Virus record (IMG/VR): IMGVR_UViG_3300036770_008730
DNA from: a virus
Lineage: Duplodnaviria; Caudoviricetes
Strand: one strand, 5' to 3'
Length of the DNA stretch: 64,000 bases
In this document: piece by piece, positions 8,792 through 61,070 of the stretch
Numbering within the stretch: position 1 is the stretch's first letter
How the letters are laid out: every line of letters begins with the position of its first letter
Made by a program: the position numbers and the translations under genes
The notes under the pieces: generated by a model
The model's input: the letters and a program-made list of their open reading frames with translations, nothing else
Database searches by the model: none
Told to the model about the DNA's origin: nothing

Positions 8792-8800
8792 TAATATATA
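8792..8800 (+). promoter_or_regulatory. TAATATATA putative late promoter
   Basis: Exact motif upstream of the ATG at 8826. Confidence 0.55.
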
Positions 8801-16610: not shown

Positions 16611-18317
16611 ATGAATTTTGAGATTTTTAAAAGTCCAGATCCTTCAGGAAGGTTATCAAAAGAATCTTTTATTTCTAATAATTATCCAGAAGAATATATT
16701 TATATTATAGACTTTTGTAGTAAAAATGGAATGAATGATTTACCATTCAAAGAAAAAGTTTATTTAAGTGTTAATAAAATTAACAGATTACCAGTTTGTA
16801 AAAATCCTAATTGTAGTAGTTTGGTTTCTTTTAGAAATTCTACATTGGGTTATCGAGAATATTGTTCTACTAAATGTTTGAGCTCGGATCCGGATATTAA
16901 AAAAATAAAACAACAAAAATCTATACAAAAGTATGGCACAAACACACCCGCTCAATCTCAGGTTATCAAAAATAAAATTATTAAAACTAATTTAGAGAAA
17001 TGGGGAGCTAATTCACCAATGTGTGATGATGGCGTTCGAAAAAAATCTAAAGAAACTCTAATTAAAAATTGGGGAGTTGACAATCCTTCAAAATCTGAAG
17101 AACTTATTGAAAAAAGAATTGAATCTTTTAAACTAAGTGATTTCAAACAAAACTTCAAAAAAACATCTATTGAGAAATATGGAGTAGAACATCCTTGGAT
17201 GAATGAAGATATACACAATAAAACAATCGATTTCTTTTATCAAAACTATAGACAAAGAATTGAATCAAAGATAGATGGTGATTATAAGTTTGTCGGATTT
17301 GCCAAAGGAACGTCTACCTATTTAAACTTCTATTGTAAAAAGTGCGAATCAGATTTTGATATACTGACTTATCAGTTTTACTATCGAATTAATTCTAAGA
17401 TAAGTATATGTACAAAGTGTTTCCCTATTTCTGAAAGTTCATCAGTATCTCAAATTGAACTTTATAATTTTATTAAAGAGAATTATGATGGTGAAATACT
17501 TTTAAATACTAAAGATTTTATTAATCCTTATGAGATAGACATTTATTTGCCCGAACTTAATATAGGATTTGAATTTAATGGTGTTTGGTGGCACAGTAAT
17601 AAATTCAAAAAACAGAATTATCATCAAAGTAAAATACAAATAGCTGAAGATAAAGGAATAAAACTAGTAATGATTTGGGAAGATGATTGGCAAATTAAAA
17701 GAGAAATTTGTAAATCTTTTATTTTAAATAAATTAGGAAAAACAAAAAGTAGAATTTTCGCAAGAAAATGTTTAATACAAGAAGTCAATTATATGGAATC
17801 AAAAAAGTTCTTAGATGAGAACCATTTACAGGGAGATTGTAAGTCATCTATTAGAATTGGATTATTCTTCAATGATGAGATTGTTAGTCTAATGACTTTT
17901 TCAAAACTTAGATTACCTCTTCAAAGATTTGAAAAAAATAGAAATAGAAAAGATCATTTTGAATTAACAAGATTCTGTAATAGAATTGATAGTAATGTAA
18001 TTGGGGGAGCTTCTAAAATGATTAAATATTTTATAGAAAAGAATAATCCAAAACAAATAGAAACCTATTCTGATAATTTAATATCCTCTGGTCACTTATA
18101 TGAGAAAATAGGATTCGAATATACACATACATCAAACCCTGGATATTGGTATGTTGTAAATGGAATAAGACAGCATAGGTTTAACTGGCGAAAACAAAAG
18201 TTAATTAAAATGGGACATGATCCAAGTAAATCAGAGGAGGAGATTATGAATGAATTAGGATATTGGAGAATATATAATGCTGGTAATAAAAAGTGGATAC
18301 TAAATCTCGAAAAATAA
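16611..18317 (+). CDS. Free-standing homing endonuclease (Vsr/DUF559-like PD-(D/E)XK, Hef-like) with zinc fingers and KYG repeats
   Basis: CxxxxC/CxxC pairs, KYGTNTP/KWGANSP/NWGVDNP/KYGVEHP repeats, YEIDIYLPELNIGFEFNGVWWHS nuclease motif; own TAATATATA at 16584. Confidence 0.7.
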   Translation: MNFEIFKSPDPSGRLSKESFISNNYPEEYIYIIDFCSKNGMNDLPFKEKVYLSVNKINRLPVCKNPNCSSLVSFRNSTLGYREYCSTKCLSSDPDIKKIKQQKSIQKYGTNTPAQSQVIKNKIIKTNLEKWGANSPMCDDGVRKKSKETLIKNWGVDNPSKSEELIEKRIESFKLSDFKQNFKKTSIEKYGVEHPWMNEDIHNKTIDFFYQNYRQRIESKIDGDYKFVGFAKGTSTYLNFYCKKCESDFDILTYQFYYRINSKISICTKCFPISESSSVSQIELYNFIKENYDGEILLNTKDFINPYEIDIYLPELNIGFEFNGVWWHSNKFKKQNYHQSKIQIAEDKGIKLVMIWEDDWQIKREICKSFILNKLGKTKSRIFARKCLIQEVNYMESKKFLDENHLQGDCKSSIRIGLFFNDEIVSLMTFSKLRLPLQRFEKNRNRKDHFELTRFCNRIDSNVIGGASKMIKYFIEKNNPKQIETYSDNLISSGHLYEKIGFEYTHTSNPGYWYVVNGIRQHRFNWRKQKLIKMGHDPSKSEEEIMNELGYWRIYNAGNKKWILNLEK

Positions 18318-20748: not shown

Positions 20749-21888
20749 ATGAGTAAAATTTACATGATCGGAGATAGTCACATTGGACTTGGATTTCCAA
20801 ATAGCGTAGATAAATGGTTTAAAGTTCATAAAGAGTATTTTAGTGAATTTTTGATACCTTTATTAAAAAGAGAAGTTAAATCGGGTGATATAATTGTTCA
20901 TTTGGGTGATTTGTTCGACAATAGAAATGTGATTCCTATCAATTTACTTAACTATGGAATGGATATTGTAGAAGAAATATCTAAAATTGCACCATTTCAT
21001 ATTATAGTTGGTAATCATGATCTTTGGTCTAAAAGTGCAAGTGAAGTTAATAGTATTCGTCCATTCAAATGGATTCCAAATGTTTTTGTACATGATACTG
21101 TTACAAAGATAGATTATAATGGTTTGAAACTTTTATTGATGCCTTATGTTGAGAAGAGAGTCGAACAGATTAAATGGATACAAGATAATAGAGATTGTCA
21201 CTATCTTTTTTGCCACTCTGATTTAAATGGTGCTAAAATGCATTTAACATCTGTTGCTCATAAAAATCCTGATAAAATTGATGTCGAGGAGTTTTCAGCA
21301 TTTAAAAAGGTTTACAGTGGTCATATTCACATTGTCTCTGATAACAGTCAGAAAAACTTCAAATTTGTTGGTTCCATTTTTCAAATGGATAGAAATGACA
21401 CCGGAGACCAAAAAGGTATTTTTGTTTTAGATACTGATACCGGTGAAGAAACATTCTTCCCAAATAAGATATCTCCTATTTTTAAGAAATTTAGAGTTGT
21501 TAAAGAAGAAGATGTGGATAGATTAGATGAGATAAAAGATACCAAAGACTATGTTGACTTACAAATTTCTAATAATCTTTTAATTAGTAACAGAAAGCTT
21601 CGTAGAAAACTTGAAGTGATGTTAGAAAAAGGTAACTTTGCCTCTGTTGAATATATTGATGATATTACAAAAGAGTTAGTTGATGGTGAAGAAGTGAATG
21701 AATCTTCAACAGTCGAAGTTGATGAGAATGGAATTGAAATCTCAGTTCAATTAGAATATGAAGACTATATAAAAGAGTATATTCTTAAACAGAAATACGA
21801 CAATGATAAATTTAAATCAGGTGTTATTTCTGAATTTGATGAAGTGATAAAAATTTACACTGACAATTACAAGTCTTCAACAGATTAA
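20749..21888 (+). CDS. gp47: Recombination endonuclease subunit (T4 gp47/SbcD/Mre11 metallophosphoesterase)
   Basis: GDSH, HLGDLFD, GNHD, CHSD and SGHIH motifs. Confidence 0.9.
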   Translation: MSKIYMIGDSHIGLGFPNSVDKWFKVHKEYFSEFLIPLLKREVKSGDIIVHLGDLFDNRNVIPINLLNYGMDIVEEISKIAPFHIIVGNHDLWSKSASEVNSIRPFKWIPNVFVHDTVTKIDYNGLKLLLMPYVEKRVEQIKWIQDNRDCHYLFCHSDLNGAKMHLTSVAHKNPDKIDVEEFSAFKKVYSGHIHIVSDNSQKNFKFVGSIFQMDRNDTGDQKGIFVLDTDTGEETFFPNKISPIFKKFRVVKEEDVDRLDEIKDTKDYVDLQISNNLLISNRKLRRKLEVMLEKGNFASVEYIDDITKELVDGEEVNESSTVEVDENGIEISVQLEYEDYIKEYILKQKYDNDKFKSGVISEFDEVIKIYTDNYKSSTD

Positions 21889-22826
21889 AATTTCAATTCA
21901 CTCACATCTTTTGCTCTACCTGTAGAAGGATCTCTTGAATTAATAATTTTATTCGGATTGATTCCTGGTCTAGTTGTTAGATAAAAACCATTTTCTAATT
22001 CTCCCTTTACACCTAGTAGATTTAGTATTTCTTTAGGACTATTGTGCTTTGAACTAATCAACATTTGCTCAACATTTTCAGCCGTATACATCTTATTATC
22101 TAAATCCGGTTTGTCTGTAGCTTGAAACCATCTGCAATACTGATACATTCCAGAATCCTCATTATTAACATCTATTCGTTCGGATTTATTTTCACTATTT
22201 ACTCTACTATCAATATTTTTCAGATACCAATCTAATGGTGTGAATATTAGATAATCTTCGATATTACCAAACACTTTGAATTCTTTTATTCCTGTATCTA
22301 CATCATCAAATACTATCGTTTTGGCTTTCGAAAAGTAAGCAACCCATGCCATTCCAAATCTTCTACCATCATGGCCATCTTTTTGTTTGCTTTTTGCTTT
22401 TGGATCTGGATCAGTTAAATATCCTATATGTGGTCTTATTTCTTCATATTTCTTTTTTTCCTCATCAGAAGCAATTTCTTGCCATTTTTTGAAATCGTCT
22501 TTGTAGATTTCTATCAACCAAGGATTATCTTTAAAGCTATTAGCAGAAAGTTTGGCTAATTCAGGCAAACCATTTTCTGATATCATCTCCATTAATTTTT
22601 GAAAAATTAAATCGTTGCCTTGAAAATTATCTGTACCTGTTAAGACCTTATCTGCCTCTGGATTTTGATACCAATGGACAATTTTAGTTGGCGCTAAACT
22701 TTTTGAATCGGTTGCTAAATAAGTTTTACCAGAAGCGCTTGGTCCAGATAGCAAAATAAACTTTTTACCTTCAACTCCTTCTTTTAGTAGTTTAATAAAA
22801 CTTTCGTATAACTTTAAGTATTTCAT
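21885..22826 (-). CDS. P-loop NTPase/kinase-like protein with capsid-targeting-like leader
   Basis: MKYLKLYESF..LKEG leader; Walker A GPSASGKT; IVFDD; TAATATATA at 22851-22859. Confidence 0.65.
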   Translation of the reverse strand: MKYLKLYESFIKLLKEGVEGKKFILLSGPSASGKTYLATDSKSLAPTKIVHWYQNPEADKVLTGTDNFQGNDLIFQKLMEMISENGLPELAKLSANSFKDNPWLIEIYKDDFKKWQEIASDEEKKKYEEIRPHIGYLTDPDPKAKSKQKDGHDGRRFGMAWVAYFSKAKTIVFDDVDTGIKEFKVFGNIEDYLIFTPLDWYLKNIDSRVNSENKSERIDVNNEDSGMYQYCRWFQATDKPDLDNKMYTAENVEQMLISSKHNSPKEILNLLGVKGELENGFYLTTRPGINPNKIINSRDPSTGRAKDVSELKF

Positions 22827-22895
22827 AGTTTTGTTTTTTTTTTTCTGTATTATATATTAATTTTTATCCTATAAATTTTTCTAAATATACCAAAC

Positions 22896-23594
22896 CTAAC
22901 TTATTACTTCGATTCCTTCCTGGCCGAAGACGAAGACTTCTCGACCCCTGAAGATGATAGCAGTGTCTTCCGAGATGCCCAATCCTATCTTCCCAGAAGT
23001 AAGACCGACTGCTATCTTCAGGCGAGAGATTCTACCTCTTTCTCTAAAATGAGTGTCTACTACGATGTCTGGCAACATAGATAGACCCTTTTTCATGAGG
23101 GGTATACTTTTGCCACCTGCTATCATCTCTCCGGATAGGGCCATAGCACCAGCAGAAGTACCTACCACAGCCATTCCTTCTGAAAATCGTTGCTTCATTC
23201 TACTCAGGAAGGAAGTTCCCAGGTAACATTCAGTTATTCTCGATTGATCTCCTCCCACGAAGAAAATTGTATCAGCAACATCTAGCTTTTTCAAGTTCTC
23301 TTCGGTGTCAACCTCGGAGGCAGTTGAAGTGTGTAGAAAAGTTGTGATGCATCCCAATCGGTTAAAAATAGGGAGGTATTTTCTTTCAGCATCTTCTTTG
23401 TGGGCAGTGGCTGTAGTCACGACCAAAAGATTAGCAGAACCCAGTCCATTGATAACAAGCTCTAAGCACTTCTCGGATTCAGATCCACCCACTAGAGCAA
23501 ATGTCTGACCATTTCTCAAGTACGGTGCGATCATGTCTTCGTACTTCAGGTTGAAGCTCTCCACCAACCAGTCACCAAAGTTTTTAATAAGCAT
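22896..23594 (-). CDS. cphB: Cyanophycinase-like serine peptidase (family S51)
   Basis: FFVGGDQ, GTSAG (Ser), DTHFRERGR (His), GISEDT (Glu); probable start MLIKNFGDWLVES at 23594 (alternative 23615); GC clearly higher than flanks. Confidence 0.85.
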   Translation of the reverse strand: MLIKNFGDWLVESFNLKYEDMIAPYLRNGQTFALVGGSESEKCLELVINGLGSANLLVVTTATAHKEDAERKYLPIFNRLGCITTFLHTSTASEVDTEENLKKLDVADTIFFVGGDQSRITECYLGTSFLSRMKQRFSEGMAVVGTSAGAMALSGEMIAGGKSIPLMKKGLSMLPDIVVDTHFRERGRISRLKIAVGLTSGKIGLGISEDTAIIFRGREVFVFGQEGIEVIS

Positions 23595-23673
23595 TCTTGA
23601 GGTCTTTCTTTTCATGTTCTATATCGTACCTTTTGTGTCTAAAACCTGATTGTGTCAAATAGTTTTAAGTACC

Positions 23674-23934
23674 TCATAACTTCTGTAATTTTATTTTCAA
23701 ATCACCGGTTCCTTTTATTAGTCTATGATAAATACCCATTGGTATAAAAACTTCTCCCCTTATTTGTTTAGGTAATTCATTATCAATTTGAATCATCCAA
23801 TCTGTTTCACCGATAGATTCAATTATACGATTTTCAAAATCTCGATGCCACATAAATTCACCAGAATCTGTATCTTGTTTGAACTCTCTGATAAATGTAT
23901 TATCACTTAATTTAGTTTCTTTAAATGGTAACAT
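23674..23934 (-). CDS. Small cupin-fold protein
   Basis: WHRD..R and IPMGIYHRLIKG cupin His motifs. Confidence 0.6.
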   Translation of the reverse strand: MLPFKETKLSDNTFIREFKQDTDSGEFMWHRDFENRIIESIGETDWMIQIDNELPKQIRGEVFIPMGIYHRLIKGTGDLKIKLQKL

Positions 23935-23938
23935 ATTT

Positions 23939-24727
23939 TTATTTATTATATAAACCTAGATAGTATTTTAATTTCTGAGGAAATTCCGTTCCCGCTGCTT
24001 TTATCTTTTGATACAATTCATCAGACATATCTTTATGTCTTTTACGAAACTCATCAGGAGACATAAACCATAAATATAAATTCAATTTTTCTTTGGATCT
24101 TTCTACCATGTCTATTTCACGAAGTTTTTTCAAATCCATTTTGGTTTCTCCTGGGTATTTTTTTGAGTATAAATAAGCGAATTGTTTTGCATGAGAATCT
24201 ACTTCCTTTTTTGATGCTAAGTATGAATATCCTTCATCTTCACCTGATTTAAATCCTTCTTTTTCTATATTTGCAATATGTTGAACCTCATGTTGTAAAC
24301 TCGATTTTAGGGCATCTACTGGATAATTAAATAATTTAGTAGTTCCTATTTCAATGCCTTCGGTTCTTATAGGATCATTTTTTGATTTTATTGCAGCTCC
24401 TTCACTCTTTGGTATCAAACGTATAAAGAAATCTTTTTGCAGAGATTTAAATGATTTCTTAATAATTGGATCAATCTGGTCAAAATCAGTTAATAAAGTA
24501 GCTGGCTCTGATGATAATCTTATATTTTGATAAGGTTTATAATGTTTTTTTATAAACTCACTTATACTTAAATTTCCTGGATTTTTTTGATAATAAATTG
24601 AAATTTGAGACTTGAAATCTAAAAGCACATCTCTAAGGAATTTATAAATCAATTTTATAGATTTATTTTCATCTTCACTTAAATATTCAGCATTTTCGAA
24701 TAGACTGTATGTTTTTAGATACTTCAT
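23939..24727 (-). CDS. Putative zinc metallopeptidase with capsid-targeting-like leader
   Basis: Start MKYLKTYSLFENA at 24727; HEVQH (HExxH) and downstream EVDSH Glu. Confidence 0.55.
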   Translation of the reverse strand: MKYLKTYSLFENAEYLSEDENKSIKLIYKFLRDVLLDFKSQISIYYQKNPGNLSISEFIKKHYKPYQNIRLSSEPATLLTDFDQIDPIIKKSFKSLQKDFFIRLIPKSEGAAIKSKNDPIRTEGIEIGTTKLFNYPVDALKSSLQHEVQHIANIEKEGFKSGEDEGYSYLASKKEVDSHAKQFAYLYSKKYPGETKMDLKKLREIDMVERSKEKLNLYLWFMSPDEFRKRHKDMSDELYQKIKAAGTEFPQKLKYYLGLYNK

Positions 24728-24741
24728 AACCAATTTATTTT

Positions 24742-25701
24742 TTACCAGAATCCCGGATAAGTTTTTCCGCCCCACAAATGTCCATATTTATTTATGCGAC
24801 ATGCCCAGTATCCAGCCTTTGTCTTATCCTTCTTTGTAGAACATTTATGACGAGCAGCAAATGACTTTCTTGCCTTAGGATTGCTCACCTTAGCAGTTAA
24901 TCCACCGTGAACATCACCAAAAGAAATCTTTTTAACCTTACCAGTTTTAGGATTCTTTACATAAACTTGATATTTTTTAGTACCACCACGCATTGGATAA
25001 TTTAACTTAACTTTTTTACCCTTATATTCCGCCTCATTTACTTCTTCTATATTTTCCATAGGTAAATCCAAAGGAACCTTTTTCCCATTAAAATAACCAA
25101 AGTTACCTATCTCGGTCTCTCTGTATAATGATTCATCAATACTACAAAGTTTTATTTTACCAGAATCATATAATCTTCTAGCTTCTGTTAAAACATTAAA
25201 GAAAGATTTTGAACCAGGTCTAAAAATACTTTCTGTTATTGGTTTGTTGTTGGTTAAGTGCCATTTTAAGTTCTCCGATACTTCAGGCATTGAGACAAAT
25301 TGAACTTGTAAGTCACCACACTGACAGTCATCACATCCACAATCACACTCAGAGTCTCCTGTGCAATCATCACAACAACCACATCCTTCACCTTCTTCAT
25401 ATTCTGATTCAAATTCATCATCATCATCATCATCTTCATATTCACCGATTTCAAATTCGTTTTCACATTCCATATTTTCAACATTATCAATATTGATGGT
25501 TATGAATGATTCAAATTTTTCAACTTTATTTTTCTTAAGATTATTTAATTCTTTTTCATCGTGTTCAACAGGTTCAGTTTTGATACCTAATCCCATGATT
25601 TCTTCTTTCTCATTTTCTAAAGATTTAGCTGAGAATCCAAAGTCTTCTTCTTTAACTTTTTTTTCTTTCTTCTTTTCGTTGAATTTTCTGAGATGTTTCA
25701 T
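24742..25701 (-). CDS. Multidomain protein: leader, acidic/Cys-rich cluster, basic C-terminal domain
   Basis: MKHLRKFNE; CGCCDDCTGDSECDCGCDDCQC; KKYQVYV..KKISFGD..SFAARHKC..GYWAC. Confidence 0.65.
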   Translation of the reverse strand: MKHLRKFNEKKKEKKVKEEDFGFSAKSLENEKEEIMGLGIKTEPVEHDEKELNNLKKNKVEKFESFITINIDNVENMECENEFEIGEYEDDDDDDEFESEYEEGEGCGCCDDCTGDSECDCGCDDCQCGDLQVQFVSMPEVSENLKWHLTNNKPITESIFRPGSKSFFNVLTEARRLYDSGKIKLCSIDESLYRETEIGNFGYFNGKKVPLDLPMENIEEVNEAEYKGKKVKLNYPMRGGTKKYQVYVKNPKTGKVKKISFGDVHGGLTAKVSNPKARKSFAARHKCSTKKDKTKAGYWACRINKYGHLWGGKTYPGFW

Positions 25702-25703
25702 AG

Positions 25704-27062
25704 TTATTTTTTAGTTTTTATAAGATATTTCTTTATAAGTAGTTTCCAAACAGGTTCTTCTCTATCACCAATTCTCATTATTTCTTCGTTTCCAGCTCTT
25801 AAGTTTATTGAGTGAATTAGAGTTCTGATGTTGAGGTCAAATTTCACCGGATAGTTATCAGTAACATAAATTAGGTATTCTAAAGCTTCTTCTTTTAGTT
25901 TCATATCTAATTCTGGTGATATTCTTGACATAATCTCTTTCATTCTTGAAATGATTTCTTCTTTGTTAAGATTTACATCAACATGTAGAGACCTAGAAAG
26001 AATTGCGTCATCGAATTTCTCTTCTGCTAAATTAGAAATGAAAATCACCTGACCTGAAAATTCGAATCTGTTAGGTAACATTCTTCCCTCTTTTTCTTCA
26101 TATTCTTGTTGAATTTCTAAATCACTCATACCTGTTGAGTCAAAAGTGTTACCTTTTGTCAGTTTAGATAGTTCTCTTACTGGATAAGTATCTAAAGCTC
26201 CTTTAAGTAAGTTTACTGAATCGGCATCTTTTAGAACAGCATCACAATCATCAAAGATGATTAACTTATTTCTGTGTTTGAATAGGACTTCAAATAGACC
26301 AGCTGTTGTAATGGTGCCTGTTGATTTATAATAGTGAACATCTGGTTGCATTCCAATAGATCTTAGCGTGTCTGTTACAACTGAAGTTTTACCAACACCC
26401 GCTTGTCCACTTACAATTAGAGAATTACTTTTACCTCTTGCAACTTGTATTGTGTATAATTCAATAGCTTTGAAAATATCAATTTTAAGATCTTGAACAG
26501 TTATTTTATCTGATTCTTTTTCAGCCTTTTCTGTGGTTGCAACAATTGCTCTTAGTTGTTCAATTCTTCTTTCAATTTTTTCAACGCTAGTTGGAGACTT
26601 TGCTCTTTTTCTTTTCTTTTCCCACTCTTGGAGCTCTTCTTTTGGATCATAAGTTTCTTGTAGTTCTGTTTCTTCTACCTTTTGAATCATTGATTCCGGA
26701 TTATTGAAGAAGTCTACTACAAAAGGTAAATGTTTAACAATTGATTCATCTTTAGGTATAAAGAGAGTAAATTCTGGATTCTTCTCAAATTCAAAATTCA
26801 ACCATAAATCTATTGAATGTATTACATTTCTAATGTCATCTTCTTTCCAATTTATTCTAATGGCCTTTGTTGTTTTAAGAGAAATAAATAATTGACCTCT
26901 TAGAAAGTCCATTCCTTTTTGAATAAAGAATATTTCGTTATATGGATATAAATCATTTCCAGTCTTTCTTTCGATAAATTCTGTTATTTTTTGTATAGCA
27001 TCTTCTTTATCCTTGGATAGAAATGCCTCTAAAAATAGTTCGTATTTTTTTAAGATTTTCAT
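25704..27062 (-). CDS. AAA+ ATPase with capsid-targeting-like leader
   Basis: MKILKKYELFLEA; Walker A GQAGVGKT; Walker B IIFDDCD; sensor/arginine finger FISN..ILSRS; TAATATATA at 27070-27078. Confidence 0.8.
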   Translation of the reverse strand: MKILKKYELFLEAFLSKDKEDAIQKITEFIERKTGNDLYPYNEIFFIQKGMDFLRGQLFISLKTTKAIRINWKEDDIRNVIHSIDLWLNFEFEKNPEFTLFIPKDESIVKHLPFVVDFFNNPESMIQKVEETELQETYDPKEELQEWEKKRKRAKSPTSVEKIERRIEQLRAIVATTEKAEKESDKITVQDLKIDIFKAIELYTIQVARGKSNSLIVSGQAGVGKTSVVTDTLRSIGMQPDVHYYKSTGTITTAGLFEVLFKHRNKLIIFDDCDAVLKDADSVNLLKGALDTYPVRELSKLTKGNTFDSTGMSDLEIQQEYEEKEGRMLPNRFEFSGQVIFISNLAEEKFDDAILSRSLHVDVNLNKEEIISRMKEIMSRISPELDMKLKEEALEYLIYVTDNYPVKFDLNIRTLIHSINLRAGNEEIMRIGDREEPVWKLLIKKYLIKTKK

Positions 27063-27069
27063 ATGTTCA

Positions 27070-27113
27070 TATATATTAATTTTGTGGACTAAGAAATGTA
27101 AAATTAATATATA
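27070..27113. promoter_or_regulatory. Back-to-back TAATATATA promoters
   Basis: Minus-strand copy at 27070-27078 and plus-strand copy at 27105-27113 in a 74-bp divergent gap. Confidence 0.6.
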
Positions 27114-39930: not shown

Positions 39931-41265
39931 ATGAGTAAATTAATTACATTAAATGGAATAGAAGATGATTCTCTTTTAAATGAAATCTTTAACGATGAAA
40001 TTATTGTTATAGAGGATATTCAAGGTAGTAAAATTTGGGTTAATTGGAATGGTAAAGATTTTATAATCAAGCCTAAATCTATACAAAATGAGGCCATCAA
40101 TTTGGTTGATTTGGCTATGCAGAATTATTACAATCCTGCTATAAAATATTTTAATTCATTAGATGATAGAATAAAAGGCCTTTTAAATAAAAAATGGTGG
40201 TATTGCTTTGAATATTTTCCAGATAATCAACCAGCAAATATTGAATATAGTAGAGTTCCAAAAAATAACTTAGTATTGACCTTTATAAATAAAGGTGGTG
40301 GTAAATATGAGTTCAATTATGAGGAACTAGATGAATATTCTCGACTTTTTGATGTTGATATGATTCCTATTGTTTTTTATGGTAAATTATCAGATAGAAT
40401 GATAGAGGCAATAAGATACTTTATTAATACTAGCGAGGGTGATTTAGAATATGTCTTTGGTGAAAAGTCATTCGCCTTTTTCTTCTATAAGATTTTGAAT
40501 CCAAATACCAAAAACTCTTTTTTGATGGATGAAGAGAATTATCAAAAAAATGTTGAGAAGTTGATTATCAGATGTAAATCAAAAGAACTCTCTTTTGAAA
40601 TTCTTAATCCTCTTTATAAAAGAATTAGTGAGAAAACTTCAACCGAATTTGTTGAAATATACACTCTTATTTTAATAAATTTTCTTAACTTCTGTCAATC
40701 TGTTAATTTAGAACAGATTAAACTTAAAGGTCAAAAAAGAGATGAACTTTATCTATTTCTTATATCTAAGCTTTATAATATTTATGTTTCTGAAATAAAA
40801 ACAGACCTTTTACAGTTTGAATTTTCTGTTCCTGAATTCTTTGATAAAGAAAAATTCAAAATTAATAAAGAGTTGATATCAAATAAACTAACTAAAGAAT
40901 TTATTGAAGAAGATCCTAAACTAGAATATATCTACAAAGTTATACTTGGATCTCTAAATAAGAAAAAGAAAAAACCTATTGGTCTTTTTACAGATAATAC
41001 AGTTTCTCTTTTTAATCAATTTGTAGATTCCATATCAAAATACATAGATGAATATTTGAACAAAATTCAAGAGGTTGAATTAACACGTTCTGGATTATTA
41101 GATTTCGAAGATTTCTTTGATATTCAATATGATAAAGATTCAGAAGGTGAGGTTTATCCAGATGTTTATTCAGAATTTGGAAAAGAAGAATCCGAAACAA
41201 AGAAAAAGAAAGGTAAGGGTGGTAAAATGACTGGAGGACCTTCAAAAGAATCTTCTACTAAATAA
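39931..41265 (+). CDS. RNA-ligase-fold protein with degenerate motif I (possible pseudoenzyme)
   Basis: IEDIQGS in place of EKxDGS; CFEYF, IPIVFYG and VEKLIIR at the positions of motifs III/IIIa/IV; TAATATATA at 39896. Confidence 0.45.
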   Translation: MSKLITLNGIEDDSLLNEIFNDEIIVIEDIQGSKIWVNWNGKDFIIKPKSIQNEAINLVDLAMQNYYNPAIKYFNSLDDRIKGLLNKKWWYCFEYFPDNQPANIEYSRVPKNNLVLTFINKGGGKYEFNYEELDEYSRLFDVDMIPIVFYGKLSDRMIEAIRYFINTSEGDLEYVFGEKSFAFFFYKILNPNTKNSFLMDEENYQKNVEKLIIRCKSKELSFEILNPLYKRISEKTSTEFVEIYTLILINFLNFCQSVNLEQIKLKGQKRDELYLFLISKLYNIYVSEIKTDLLQFEFSVPEFFDKEKFKINKELISNKLTKEFIEEDPKLEYIYKVILGSLNKKKKKPIGLFTDNTVSLFNQFVDSISKYIDEYLNKIQEVELTRSGLLDFEDFFDIQYDKDSEGEVYPDVYSEFGKEESETKKKKGKGGKMTGGPSKESSTK

Positions 41266-41310
41266 TTTCTAACTTACTAAAACATAAATTTTATTCTCTA
41301 TATAAAATCT

Positions 41311-42552
41311 ATGAGTCAAGCTTCAGTAGTCAAATTATCAGAATTATCAAATTACACACATTTAACAAAAAATATTGAAGAAAAGAAGTCTATATTACAA
41401 TTTTTGCCTAAATGTCTTGATACTATATCCAGTACAAAACATATTAACCATAATGGGCAAAAGTTAAAAACCGCCTATATTATTGATATTGTTCATAATT
41501 TAGTCTTAAAATACTATTTTAGAAAAGAAAATAAATTTAATCTTTCATCTATTATTCTAAAAGAAAAATATGGATATCTTTATAATTATTATATTGATTA
41601 TTTGGTCTCTAAAAATATTTTGATTCTAATATCTAAACACCTTAAAGGTAAAAGTTCAAGAGTTTACTCTATATATGATACAATTCTCAAAGGTGAAATT
41701 AATAGATTTATTAATGAGGATAAGGTTATCCTTAAAAAATATAAACAGAAAATAAACCAATTATCATTTGAGGATGTTGTTCCTGAAATGAGTCTAATAG
41801 AACCTCAAATAAAATTAAAACTAATAGATGATTTATTCAGTGTTAAAATAGAATTTGATAGGTCTATTTTTTATCTCGAAAATCTAAAAAATGATGATAT
41901 TGACTTATACAATAGGAATAGATATTCCGTTGAATGTATAAATGGTAATCACATTTTTTATCATTTTGATAACTACGGCAGAATGCACACTAATTTTACT
42001 ATTTTGAAGTCATTTATTAGAAAAAATTGCCTACTTATAGATAATGAAGAAACATTTGAGATTGATATAAAAAATAGTCAACCCCTATTCCTTGCTAAAT
42101 TAATAGAAATTTCATCAACTAAGTGGGTTAAAAAAGAAGAGTTTGAGTTATTTAAATATCTTACATTAAATGGAAAATACTATGAATATCTTCAGAATGC
42201 ATTCTCTATATCAGAAAAAAAAGAAGTCAAAGAGTTGACTTATAAAGTTTTATTCGGTAGAAATAATGTTAATAGTAAATCTGATAAATTATTTTCTTCT
42301 ATTTTTCCAACAATACACAATTTTATAAAATTGTATAAAAAGGAAAATGGTGACTATAGAATTTTAGCTTATGATCTACAAAAAGCTGAAAGTAATTTGA
42401 TTTTCAATAAAATAATAAATTCAATAATGAATTCACATCCAGAAATCAAAGTTATAACGGTACATGATAGCATCATTGTTGCTAAAAAAAATCGACAAAC
42501 AGTTCAAGCCATATTTCATACAAAATTATTTGAAGAATTCGGTCTTATCTAA
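41311..42552 (+). CDS. Stand-alone family-A/T7-RNAP-superfamily polymerase-like protein (TV-Pol-like), no exonuclease
   Basis: YGRMHT, motif A EIDIKNSQP, motif B KELTYKVLFG, QKAES, motif C TVHDSII. Confidence 0.6.
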   Translation: MSQASVVKLSELSNYTHLTKNIEEKKSILQFLPKCLDTISSTKHINHNGQKLKTAYIIDIVHNLVLKYYFRKENKFNLSSIILKEKYGYLYNYYIDYLVSKNILILISKHLKGKSSRVYSIYDTILKGEINRFINEDKVILKKYKQKINQLSFEDVVPEMSLIEPQIKLKLIDDLFSVKIEFDRSIFYLENLKNDDIDLYNRNRYSVECINGNHIFYHFDNYGRMHTNFTILKSFIRKNCLLIDNEETFEIDIKNSQPLFLAKLIEISSTKWVKKEEFELFKYLTLNGKYYEYLQNAFSISEKKEVKELTYKVLFGRNNVNSKSDKLFSSIFPTIHNFIKLYKKENGDYRILAYDLQKAESNLIFNKIINSIMNSHPEIKVITVHDSIIVAKKNRQTVQAIFHTKLFEEFGLI

Positions 42553-42569
42553 TTTAATATATAATAAGT

Positions 42570-43109
42570 ATGCTAGAATTAGAAAAACCTAATGCTTGTT
42601 TTGCTATTATCTCATCTCAAAAATTGAATGATATAATATCTGTTTTATATGCAAAAGAATATCAAATCATTCCAATCCAAGGTTACTATCACGGTCAATA
42701 TGAAGACTCCGTAATCGCCTTTGGTAGAGTCGATAATGATACTTTAAGACAGGATATACTTCAATTATTAAATATTTTTCATCAGGATTGTGCAATAATC
42801 AAATACTTAGGAGAAACAGGTGCTAAAAAGTTATTTAGCGATGGTCAAGAGAAACCACTTGGTATAGTAATGTATAATACGGATTCTGATAATATTTCCT
42901 ATCTTTATAACGGAACTTCATTTTCATTTGTGGAATCGGTAAGATATTGGAAGCCAACTAAAAAGGAAGATTTTAGAATTGGAATGTTAGTTGAATACTT
43001 TAATAATAATAAATGGTATCAAAAAGAAGTTAAGAATCCAAACGAAGATTATGAGAAATTCTTCAAGCTATTAATTAAGTATGATAAATTAAGAGTTGTT
43101 GCTAAATAA
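42570..43109 (+). CDS. Probable SAM lyase (T3 SAMase-like) with C-terminal KOW-like extension
   Basis: FAIISS, QGYYHGQYEDSV and FHQDCAII match the recalled T3 SAMase pattern; TAATATATA at 42555. Confidence 0.5.
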   Translation: MLELEKPNACFAIISSQKLNDIISVLYAKEYQIIPIQGYYHGQYEDSVIAFGRVDNDTLRQDILQLLNIFHQDCAIIKYLGETGAKKLFSDGQEKPLGIVMYNTDSDNISYLYNGTSFSFVESVRYWKPTKKEDFRIGMLVEYFNNNKWYQKEVKNPNEDYEKFFKLLIKYDKLRVVAK

Positions 43110-61061: not shown

Positions 61062-61070
61062 TAATATATA
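61062..61070 (+). promoter_or_regulatory. TAATATATA putative late promoter
   Basis: Exact motif upstream of the ATG at 61096. Confidence 0.55.

Follow-up and report, generated by a model that had tools for sequence, protein, structure and literature searches.

A CphB-type peptidase S51 gene in a 0.6-Mb freshwater phage may encode a miniaturised cyanophycinase

The stretch of DNA analysed here (64,000 nucleotides of the IMG/VR virus record IMGVR_UViG_3300036770_008730, Caudoviricetes; hereafter the window) is part of the 598,435-bp contig of a freshwater phage of about 0.6 Mb. On its minus strand, at 22896..23615, lies an intact gene for a cyanophycinase-like protein of the peptidase S51 family (Pfam PF03575, E 2.7e-17), whose longest open reading frame (ORF) has 239 amino acids (aa). 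The probable true start is the ATG at 23594, Met8 of this ORF, which gives a protein of 232 aa, since it aligns with the starts of the homologues P0003–P0005 and two of the seven amino-acid differences from a 97%-identical copy sit in the seven codons before it. S51 enzymes of the CphB type are serine exopeptidases that cut the β-Asp-Arg polymer cyanophycin, a bacterial store of nitrogen, carbon and energy, into dipeptides. To our knowledge, only dedicated cyanophycinases open this polymer. We found no description of a phage-encoded cyanophycinase in the literature, no family for the S51 protein in PHROGs, and no match to it by tblastn among the INPHARED phages.

The catalytic triad comprises Ser154 in the GTSAGA nucleophile elbow (codon at 23154..23156, minus strand), His189 (DTHF) and Glu216 (SEDT; codon at 22968..22970, minus strand). 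A sequence-only reading of the window had described the Ser-His-Glu motifs as intact, and all three residues are indeed invariant in 71 aligned homologues, 15 from phages and 56 cellular. The same holds for Gln124, Asp187, Arg193, Arg195 and Arg198, of which the last four lie with His189 in the segment DTHFRERGRISR (23022..23057, minus strand); the CphB-type pocket motifs GGDQ and DxHFxxRxRxxRL are thus kept. Mutagenesis of Synechocystis CphB by Law et al. in 2009 reportedly identified Gln101, Ser132, Asp172, Gln173, Arg178, Arg180 and Arg183 as critical. Five of the six corresponding pocket positions are matched in the window protein (Gln124, Asp187, Arg193, Arg195 and Arg198), while the sixth, that of Gln173, is Thr188.

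The protein passes the NCBIfam equivalog model for cyanophycinase (TIGR02069) with 148.1 bits against a cut-off of 126.6, the match spanning positions 28–215 of 250. Identity with peptidase E (PepE) was rejected, as the PepE model (NF003642) gives 17.6 bits, far below its cut-off of 156, and its pocket shows GGDQ and RxRxxR where PepE has GGNT and an 8-residue insert. S51 enzymes of the MccG-type clade V use Asp as the third triad residue (PMC9239234), and an MccG-like role, with its Ser-His-Asp triad, was rejected on account of Glu216.

An AlphaFold2 (AF2) model built with the 71 homologues has a predicted local distance difference test score (pLDDT) of 91.3 overall, with only 47–77 for residues 1–30. 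Residues 37–239 of the model superpose on substrate-bound Synechocystis CphB (7uqw) with Z 27.9 and a root-mean-square deviation (rmsd) of 1.5 Å over 203 residues, followed by 3en0 (Z 27.7), 7uqv (Z 27.2) and 6nqc (Z 23.4); PepE structures reach Z of about 20. By predicted fold, profile and pocket, the window protein is a CphB-type S51 enzyme. On the question raised with the sequence-only reading, whether the protein groups with CphB or with PepE, profiles, pocket, structure and PepE-rooted trees all side with CphB. The protein lacks the architecture of full-length cyanophycinases, which have about 270–290 aa including C-terminal strands. Truncated cyanophycinase-like domains also occur in another setting: 53 of 268 proteins, all 53 from among the best 150 library representatives, are about 500–900 aa long with two such domains in tandem (P0123–P0156 and others), and each of these domains stops at about position 230–240 of the 274 profile positions, so that the C-terminal segment is absent as in the phage forms.

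The nearest relatives of the window protein (P0002–P0015; 46–97% identical, 210–323 aa) are all metagenomic and all lie on phage-like contigs. IMG/VR holds a further copy on a 344-kb contig, and a scan of metagenome contigs returned mostly cellular relatives and just two more loci of the phage clade. In IQ-TREE trees rooted on PepE, with support from the Shimodaira-Hasegawa-like approximate likelihood ratio test (SH-aLRT), 17 short forms including the window protein make up one clade (support 100), with P0139 and then P0147 as successive sisters. The contig of P0139 (250 aa) has a gene for a T4 gp13-type neck protein, and those of P0147 (264 aa) have gp13 and homing endonucleases. The whole phage lineage is monophyletic (support 99–100). 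Its sister (support 98) is a group that includes P0018, P0259 and P0167 together with genes from three genomes in the phylum of a Flavobacterium metagenome-assembled genome (MAG), in which the S51 gene lies 110–220 bp from a cphA gene above the TIGR02068 cut-off. Identity to these cphA-adjacent genes is 58–60% for P0018, 47–48% for P0147, 42–43% for P0139, 35–36% for P0015 and 34–37% for the window protein.

Along the phage lineage the protein becomes shorter in steps. An insert after GGxE is first shortened and then gone; from P0139 onward the protein lacks a 7-residue loop behind the GG that comes after the nucleophile helix; and the C-terminus is full in P0147, partial in P0139 and P0015 and missing in most short forms, among them the window protein. 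The short C-terminus does not reflect a broken gene, because all 17 members of the short clade end at the same place. A truncated pseudogene was rejected on the same ground and because a 69-nt AT-rich spacer follows the window gene. Pairwise ratios of non-synonymous to synonymous rates (dN/dS) between short forms are 0.16–0.36, which argues for purifying selection and against decay. Most simply, an ancestor of T4-like huge phages took up a Bacteroidota cphB once, long ago, and the enzyme was then miniaturised under selection. A second, independent phage S51 lineage (L018:7896–8645 and L020:7503–8618, on IMG/VR contigs of 81 and 109 kb) is paired with support 100 apart from the main clade; it too ends at the short C-terminus, and the L020 protein has a 150-residue N-terminal extension. 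C-terminal trimming of S51 enzymes in phages may thus be recurrent.

The base composition of the gene differs sharply from that of its surroundings. Its GC content is 0.442 against a window mean of 0.295, and its GC content at third codon positions (GC3), 0.435, is the highest of the 57 ORFs of at least 100 aa, about 5 standard deviations (sd) from the others (mean 0.21, sd 0.043). In 30-nt bins the GC content is 0.33–0.60 within the gene and 0.13–0.33 outside it, and the GC-shifted block of about 44% GC (22896..23590) is bounded by roughly the seventh leader codon on one side and the stop codon on the other. These values bear out the foreign composition noticed in the sequence-only reading. 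The jump is confined to this lineage. Homologues in L001–L004 (0.30–0.32) and L005 (0.40) match their own phages (0.30–0.32 and 0.38), and that in L011 has 0.35 against 0.28–0.30, while L009 and L010, short contigs from other samples, are 97–99% identical to the window across gene and flanks and show the same jump. Related phages that are richer in GC also carry the gene (L030 with 50.6%, L113 with 41% and L017 with 38.8%), and the neighbours in L030 are syntenic with window positions 39931–43109. L030 also has a 70-aa ORF (L030:4199–4411) with a weak Gp23 match between two larger genes.

Taken together, a jump specific to this lineage and the presence of the gene in GC-richer relatives suggest that the window copy probably arrived recently from a GC-richer phage of the same broad group. 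The donor was almost certainly a phage and not a bacterium, because the near relatives are all phage-encoded and share phage-specific truncations. The sequence-only reading had called the gene recently acquired: this stands for the arrival of a copy with foreign composition, but not for a bacterial source, since the capture from bacteria is ancient. No direct donor was found among the copies compared, the closest beyond the L009/L010 lineage being 64–67% identical. The gene has diverged from that in L009 by 1.4%, against 6.7% for the upstream flank. Sequencing runs of four studies (subsurface and freshwater samples dated 2020–2025) contain at least half of the sampled words of the stretch, and no RNA run is listed for it.

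The protein begins with a leader-like peptide, MLIKNFGDWLVE (23559..23594, minus strand), a degenerate derivative of the canonical MKxIKxFExF; its last three residues form an (L/I)xE motif. Of the 62 ORFs in the window, 7 show the strict leader pattern among their first 13 residues, where 0.36 would be expected. We compared N-termini with random internal segments using a position-specific scoring matrix (PSSM) made from 22 canonical leader 7-mers of genes other than S51. The window copy, IKNFGDW, scores 0.5, a value reached by 12% of random segments. In other clade members the same alignment columns hold the canonical leaders IKLFENF, IMLFEEF and IKTYESF, whose scores of 13.5–15.3 are reached by none of 20,000 random segments, and the leaders of P0007–10, P0013, P0122 and P0014 score 8.4–15.3, reached by at most 0.09%. 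None of nine cellular N-termini scores on the matrix. Two other window genes start with M-x-IK-x-F, as the S51 gene does from Met8. The likeness to the phage leader proposed in the sequence-only reading is therefore borne out only in part, by the clade and by these two genes but not by the score of the window copy itself. Among the 15 members P0001–P0015, 13 have an (L/I)xE site behind the motif; it is absent from P0014 and P0015, and from P0011 too only if its start is as called. In the window copy it is LVE (residues 17–19), which is weak evidence because the motif is short and common.

Judged from the N-termini, the leader type of the S51 gene tracks that of the resident phage across the clade. 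P0147 is leaderless, and its phage stretches are without any leader gene; P0139 starts with MIYLEKYSDF and is followed by two canonical leader genes; and the L028 copy starts with MK.FIK.IL, a variant common to the two genes before it. The sequence-only reading had further suggested that the leader was grafted onto the window gene. The start IKNFxDWLxE is common to P0003–P0006 and is present in 64–67%-identical homologues in other phages, and from roughly its seventh codon the leader is already written in the foreign, GC-rich style, so that it came in with the gene. Grafting is true only of the deep history of the clade.

Around the gene, the window encodes tail sheath, tail tube, SbcD-like, homing-endonuclease and DNA polymerase proteins. 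Megablast of 12 kb against INPHARED gave a single match, of 925 bp, to the 642-kb uncultured phage LR756502. Four co-oriented genes lie upstream of the S51 gene (23674..27062, minus strand), encoding an AAA+ protein of 452 aa, a Cys- and acidic-rich protein of 319 aa, a protein of 262–278 aa and an ORF of 86 aa, and three of them start with the leader. With the S51 gene as the fifth they would form one transcription unit, from 27062 to 22896. The promoter-like motif TAATATATA stands ahead of the first gene of this run (27070..27078, minus strand); a second copy (22851–22859, minus strand) precedes the downstream gene, and none lies directly before the S51 gene. The window has 16 matches to the motif against 3.95 expected, for example at 727–735(−), 8792–8800(+) and 61062–61070(+), nearly all of them lying 5–90 nt ahead of a gene that starts on that strand, whether the gene has a leader or not. 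From its distribution, TAATATATA is a candidate phage promoter element.

An orphan 12-codon mini-ORF, MRYLKLFDTIRF followed by a stop codon (23639..23677, minus strand), stands 23 nt upstream of the S51 gene and out of frame with it; it has a canonical leader start in the resident AT-rich style and overlaps the stop of the 86-aa ORF. It is conserved with one substitution in L009 and L010, and it is probably the stump of a resident leader gene displaced by the cassette. Downstream lies another leader-bearing gene (21885..22826, minus strand; MKYLKLYESF...) with the P-loop motif GPSASGKT and no Pfam or PHROG match. L009 (1200–1363) and L010 (870–934) share the S51 cassette and the 69-nt spacer and then continue into a different leader gene, MKYLRKFENFKPGS..., a junction also seen in contigs of two further studies. 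Homology with the window ends about 12 nt into the leader-coding sequence of the next gene, in the region of window positions 22800–22830. The position of this breakpoint and the differing downstream genes suggest that leader-coding DNA seems to serve as a recombination seam at which cargo genes are swapped.

Loci related through the downstream P-loop gene (L012–L016) are not syntenic at the S51 site. In sequencing run X9, a single 151-nt contig of depth 2 joins position 21869 to 23677 with 16 other letters between them. A variant of this kind would lack S51 and its downstream neighbour, and the joint coincides with the beginning of the orphan mini-ORF, but the evidence is too thin to use. The same is true of run X13, whose contigs cover both flanks and not the S51 gene, with no bridging contig. 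Elsewhere in the window, an HNH/homing-endonuclease gene (16611–18317, plus strand; phrog_3339, E 2.7e-120) follows the tail sheath gene, and a relative of it stands right after gp23 in L001 (15031–16506), so that mobile endonucleases occur beside major structural genes.

In related phages the S51 gene is found in the head module. L001–L003 have it, with a charged N-terminal extension of 100 residues, directly upstream of an S77 prohead protease gene, a 452-aa gene and gp23. In L028 and L029, gp23 is followed on its own strand, four genes later, by the S51 gene, which stands behind an intein-bearing S77 gene; the L028 protease gene (L028:1–1629, Peptidase_S77) has intein-splicing and LAGLIDADG matches and thus appears to be an intein-interrupted head maturation protease. 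Such placement fits late co-expression with head proteins. The internal proteins of phage T4 (IPI–III and Alt) carry an N-terminal capsid-targeting sequence that is removed after (L/I)xE by the prohead protease gp21, a member of S77. We know of no storage-polymer hydrolase that T4 packages. Given the leader in the clade and the head-module position of the gene in related phages, delivery of the S51 enzyme in the virion is plausible as far as sequence can tell. That the leader works like the T4 capsid-targeting sequence, by loading the enzyme into the prohead, where the S77 protease would cut it after (L/I)xE, is a tentative proposal by analogy, and one we doubt somewhat more than we believe. 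If it does, pre-made enzyme would enter the cell along with the DNA.

The origin of the gene argues that its lineage met cyanophycin-making hosts; it says nothing of the store of the present host. Among 301 genomes sampled from the phylum of the Flavobacterium MAG, 36 have cphA above the cut-off (about 12%), and 34 of these 36 also have an S51 partner, usually adjacent. According to a published survey, CphA1 is encoded in 86 complete genomes of Bacteroidota, each of which also has a cyanophycinase (PMC10206079). By both counts, a minority of candidate hosts would offer cyanophycin. Infection of Bacteroidetes has been predicted for phages of more than 634 kb (PMC7162821). A host search with the ABC transporter of the phage against genome contigs gave only weak matches (at most 40%), with Flavobacterium best.

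The S51 gene is a real, selected, phage-specific derivative of a Bacteroidota cyanophycinase, recently exchanged between phages with its leader included. The best explanation for it, on which we consider the balance even, is that it encodes a phage-adapted, miniaturised cyanophycinase. As to substrate, we incline slightly to an enzyme that still acts on cyanophycin or a very similar isoaspartyl substrate. The history read from the sequences is that an ancestor of T4-like huge phages captured a cphA-linked cyanophycinase of Bacteroidota once; the insert, the loop and the C-terminal segment of about 46 residues were lost while triad and pocket were kept, and an N-terminal leader of the kind found on many proteins of these phages was gained. 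The window copy landed recently, leader included, in a variable island of leader-bearing genes with breakpoints in leader-coding DNA. Asp and Arg freed from the nitrogen store of the host could meet part of the large biosynthetic demand of a 0.6-Mb genome.

Several observations weigh against an active cyanophycinase delivered in this way. The TIGR02069 cut-off is exceeded by only 22 bits, a marginal pass given that a cphA-linked Bacillota homologue scores 329 bits. The C-terminal 46 or so residues and the loop beside the nucleophile helix are missing, and Thr188 stands at the Gln173 position of Synechocystis CphB, yet 51 of the 56 cellular homologues are also without Gln there (Thr, Met or Ser). 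The 'pseudo-CphB' 7UQV is said by Sharon et al. in 2022 to have no cyanophycinase activity despite an intact active site, so that conserved residues are no guarantee of activity. The stem to the short clade is long (0.74), which leaves room for a change of substrate. Against the 97%-identical twin we count 7 non-synonymous and 3 synonymous changes (pN/pS 0.71), which gives no evidence of constraint, although ten changes are too few to judge it. The low proportion of cphA-bearing genomes in the sampled phylum and the low leader score of the window copy belong here as well. Finally, tblastn with a bacterial isoaspartyl dipeptidase (IadA) and CphA found no match in the window or in 13 phage loci, and the 64-kb window has no S77 protease.

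The long stem, with the loss of the loop and of the whole C-terminal segment, is what a neofunctionalised peptidase would be expected to leave, that is, a truncated enzyme that shifted after capture to another Asp- or isoAsp-containing substrate, for instance peptides of the head core or scaffold that the prohead protease releases, or some other peptide or polymer of the host. The head-module location in relatives and the existence of the structurally near-identical 'pseudo-CphB' agree with such a shift. Substrates in S51 are also diverse, including the dipeptides of PepE and the peptidyl-nucleotides of MccG (PMC9239234). However, phage forms with a mutual identity of only 46% all keep the five CphB-specific pocket residues, the triad is completed by Glu and not by the Asp of the MccG-type clade V, and no conserved neighbour gene suggests an alternative substrate; we regard a new substrate as improbable. 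Still further down the scale, and in our judgement very hard to credit, is a passenger gene in decay or without catalytic relevance, in a cassette that landed recently and has no use, or none so far, in this phage. The pN/pS value against the twin, the degenerate leader and the want of a promoter-like motif of the gene's own would suit it, but the ORF is intact with every catalytic and pocket residue, dN/dS in the wider clade is 0.16–0.36, the gene has diverged less than its upstream flank (1.4% against 6.7%), and the cassette recurs, at at least half of the sampled words, in the runs of four studies, with samples dated 2020–2025.

The gene may instead encode an ordinary cytoplasmic auxiliary enzyme with cyanophycinase activity, made during infection and unpackaged. 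The N-terminal peptide of the window copy would then be a relic or have a different role, for example in translation efficiency, in localisation or in assembly with other leader proteins. The leader score of the window copy, the position of the gene among tail and DNA-metabolism genes outside any head module, and the very large cargo that would result if all leader genes were packaged (about one window gene in nine has the motif) speak for this reading. It is at odds with the agreement between the leader of each copy and that of its resident phage, with the neighbourhood of S77 protease and gp23 in two related lineages, and with the (L/I)xE site after the motif in 13 of the 15 members. The same three findings are the ones that favour packaging, in which a mini-cyanophycinase would be loaded through its T4-like leader, trimmed by the protease and injected. 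The stepwise loss of about a quarter of its length would have fitted it for being packaged and ejected, and the nitrogen reserve of the host would be opened before any phage gene is expressed. We see the cytoplasmic enzyme as a minority possibility; the packaged one, argued by analogy with T4, we likewise consider rather unlikely.

With a conserved, selected phage lineage derived from the cphB of a host, the auxiliary metabolic genes would gain a new class that raids a storage polymer, and Bacteroidota that make cyanophycin would be indicated as hosts of some of the largest phages known. It also offers a natural experiment in enzyme minimisation, from 289 through 264 and 250 to about 210 core residues with the pocket intact, and shows the acquisition and exchange of a leader peptide. 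Should the enzyme be packaged, it would be without precedent as an injected enzyme mobilising a storage polymer, and should the leader direct head loading, the S51 gene would make a convenient, assayable reporter for the proposed cargo system.

The leader resembles the capsid-targeting sequence of T4 in being a short peptide directly after Met that is common to unrelated proteins of one phage and is followed by (L/I)xE, and in related phages the S51 gene stands beside the S77 protease and gp23. In contrast to the T4 system, the leader of the window copy is degenerate and the window has no S77 gene.

The enzyme itself shares with Synechocystis PCC 6803 CphB (3EN0, 7UQW; MEROPS S51) the fold, with Z 27.7–27.9 and rmsd 1.5–1.7 Å over 203–204 residues, the Ser-His-Glu triad and the equivalents of Gln101, Asp172, Arg178, Arg180 and Arg183. 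It differs in being phage-encoded, with no cphA nearby, and only 28–31% identical; it has Thr for Gln173, lacks the 7-residue loop after the GG following the nucleophile helix, ends at CphB residue 225, so that the last 46 or so residues are absent, and adds a leader and linker of 25–35 N-terminal residues. PepE (α-aspartyl dipeptidase; 1FY2, 6A4R) shares the S51 fold and the Ser-His-Glu triad but is only 15–19% identical (Z 20), and in the E. coli enzyme GGNT replaces GGDQ and an 8-residue insert takes the place of the RxRxxR pocket.

The 'pseudo-CphB' of Pseudobacteroides cellulosolvens (7UQV) is the best sequence match in the PDB (E 2.5e-29), tied for best structure (Z 27.2), and has the same motifs; its near relatives P0016 and P0017 sit in an IadA-S51-CphA cluster. 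It is of full length, and the trees do not place its Bacillota relatives as sister to the phage lineage. That position belongs to the cphA-adjacent cyanophycinases of Bacteroidota (L115, L117 and L118, with the relatives P0018, P0259 and P0167), which, in contrast to the window protein, are 285–289 aa long, leaderless and divergently paired with cphA. A shortened version of their insert after GGxE is still kept in P0147 and P0139, the two phage proteins that branch before the short clade.

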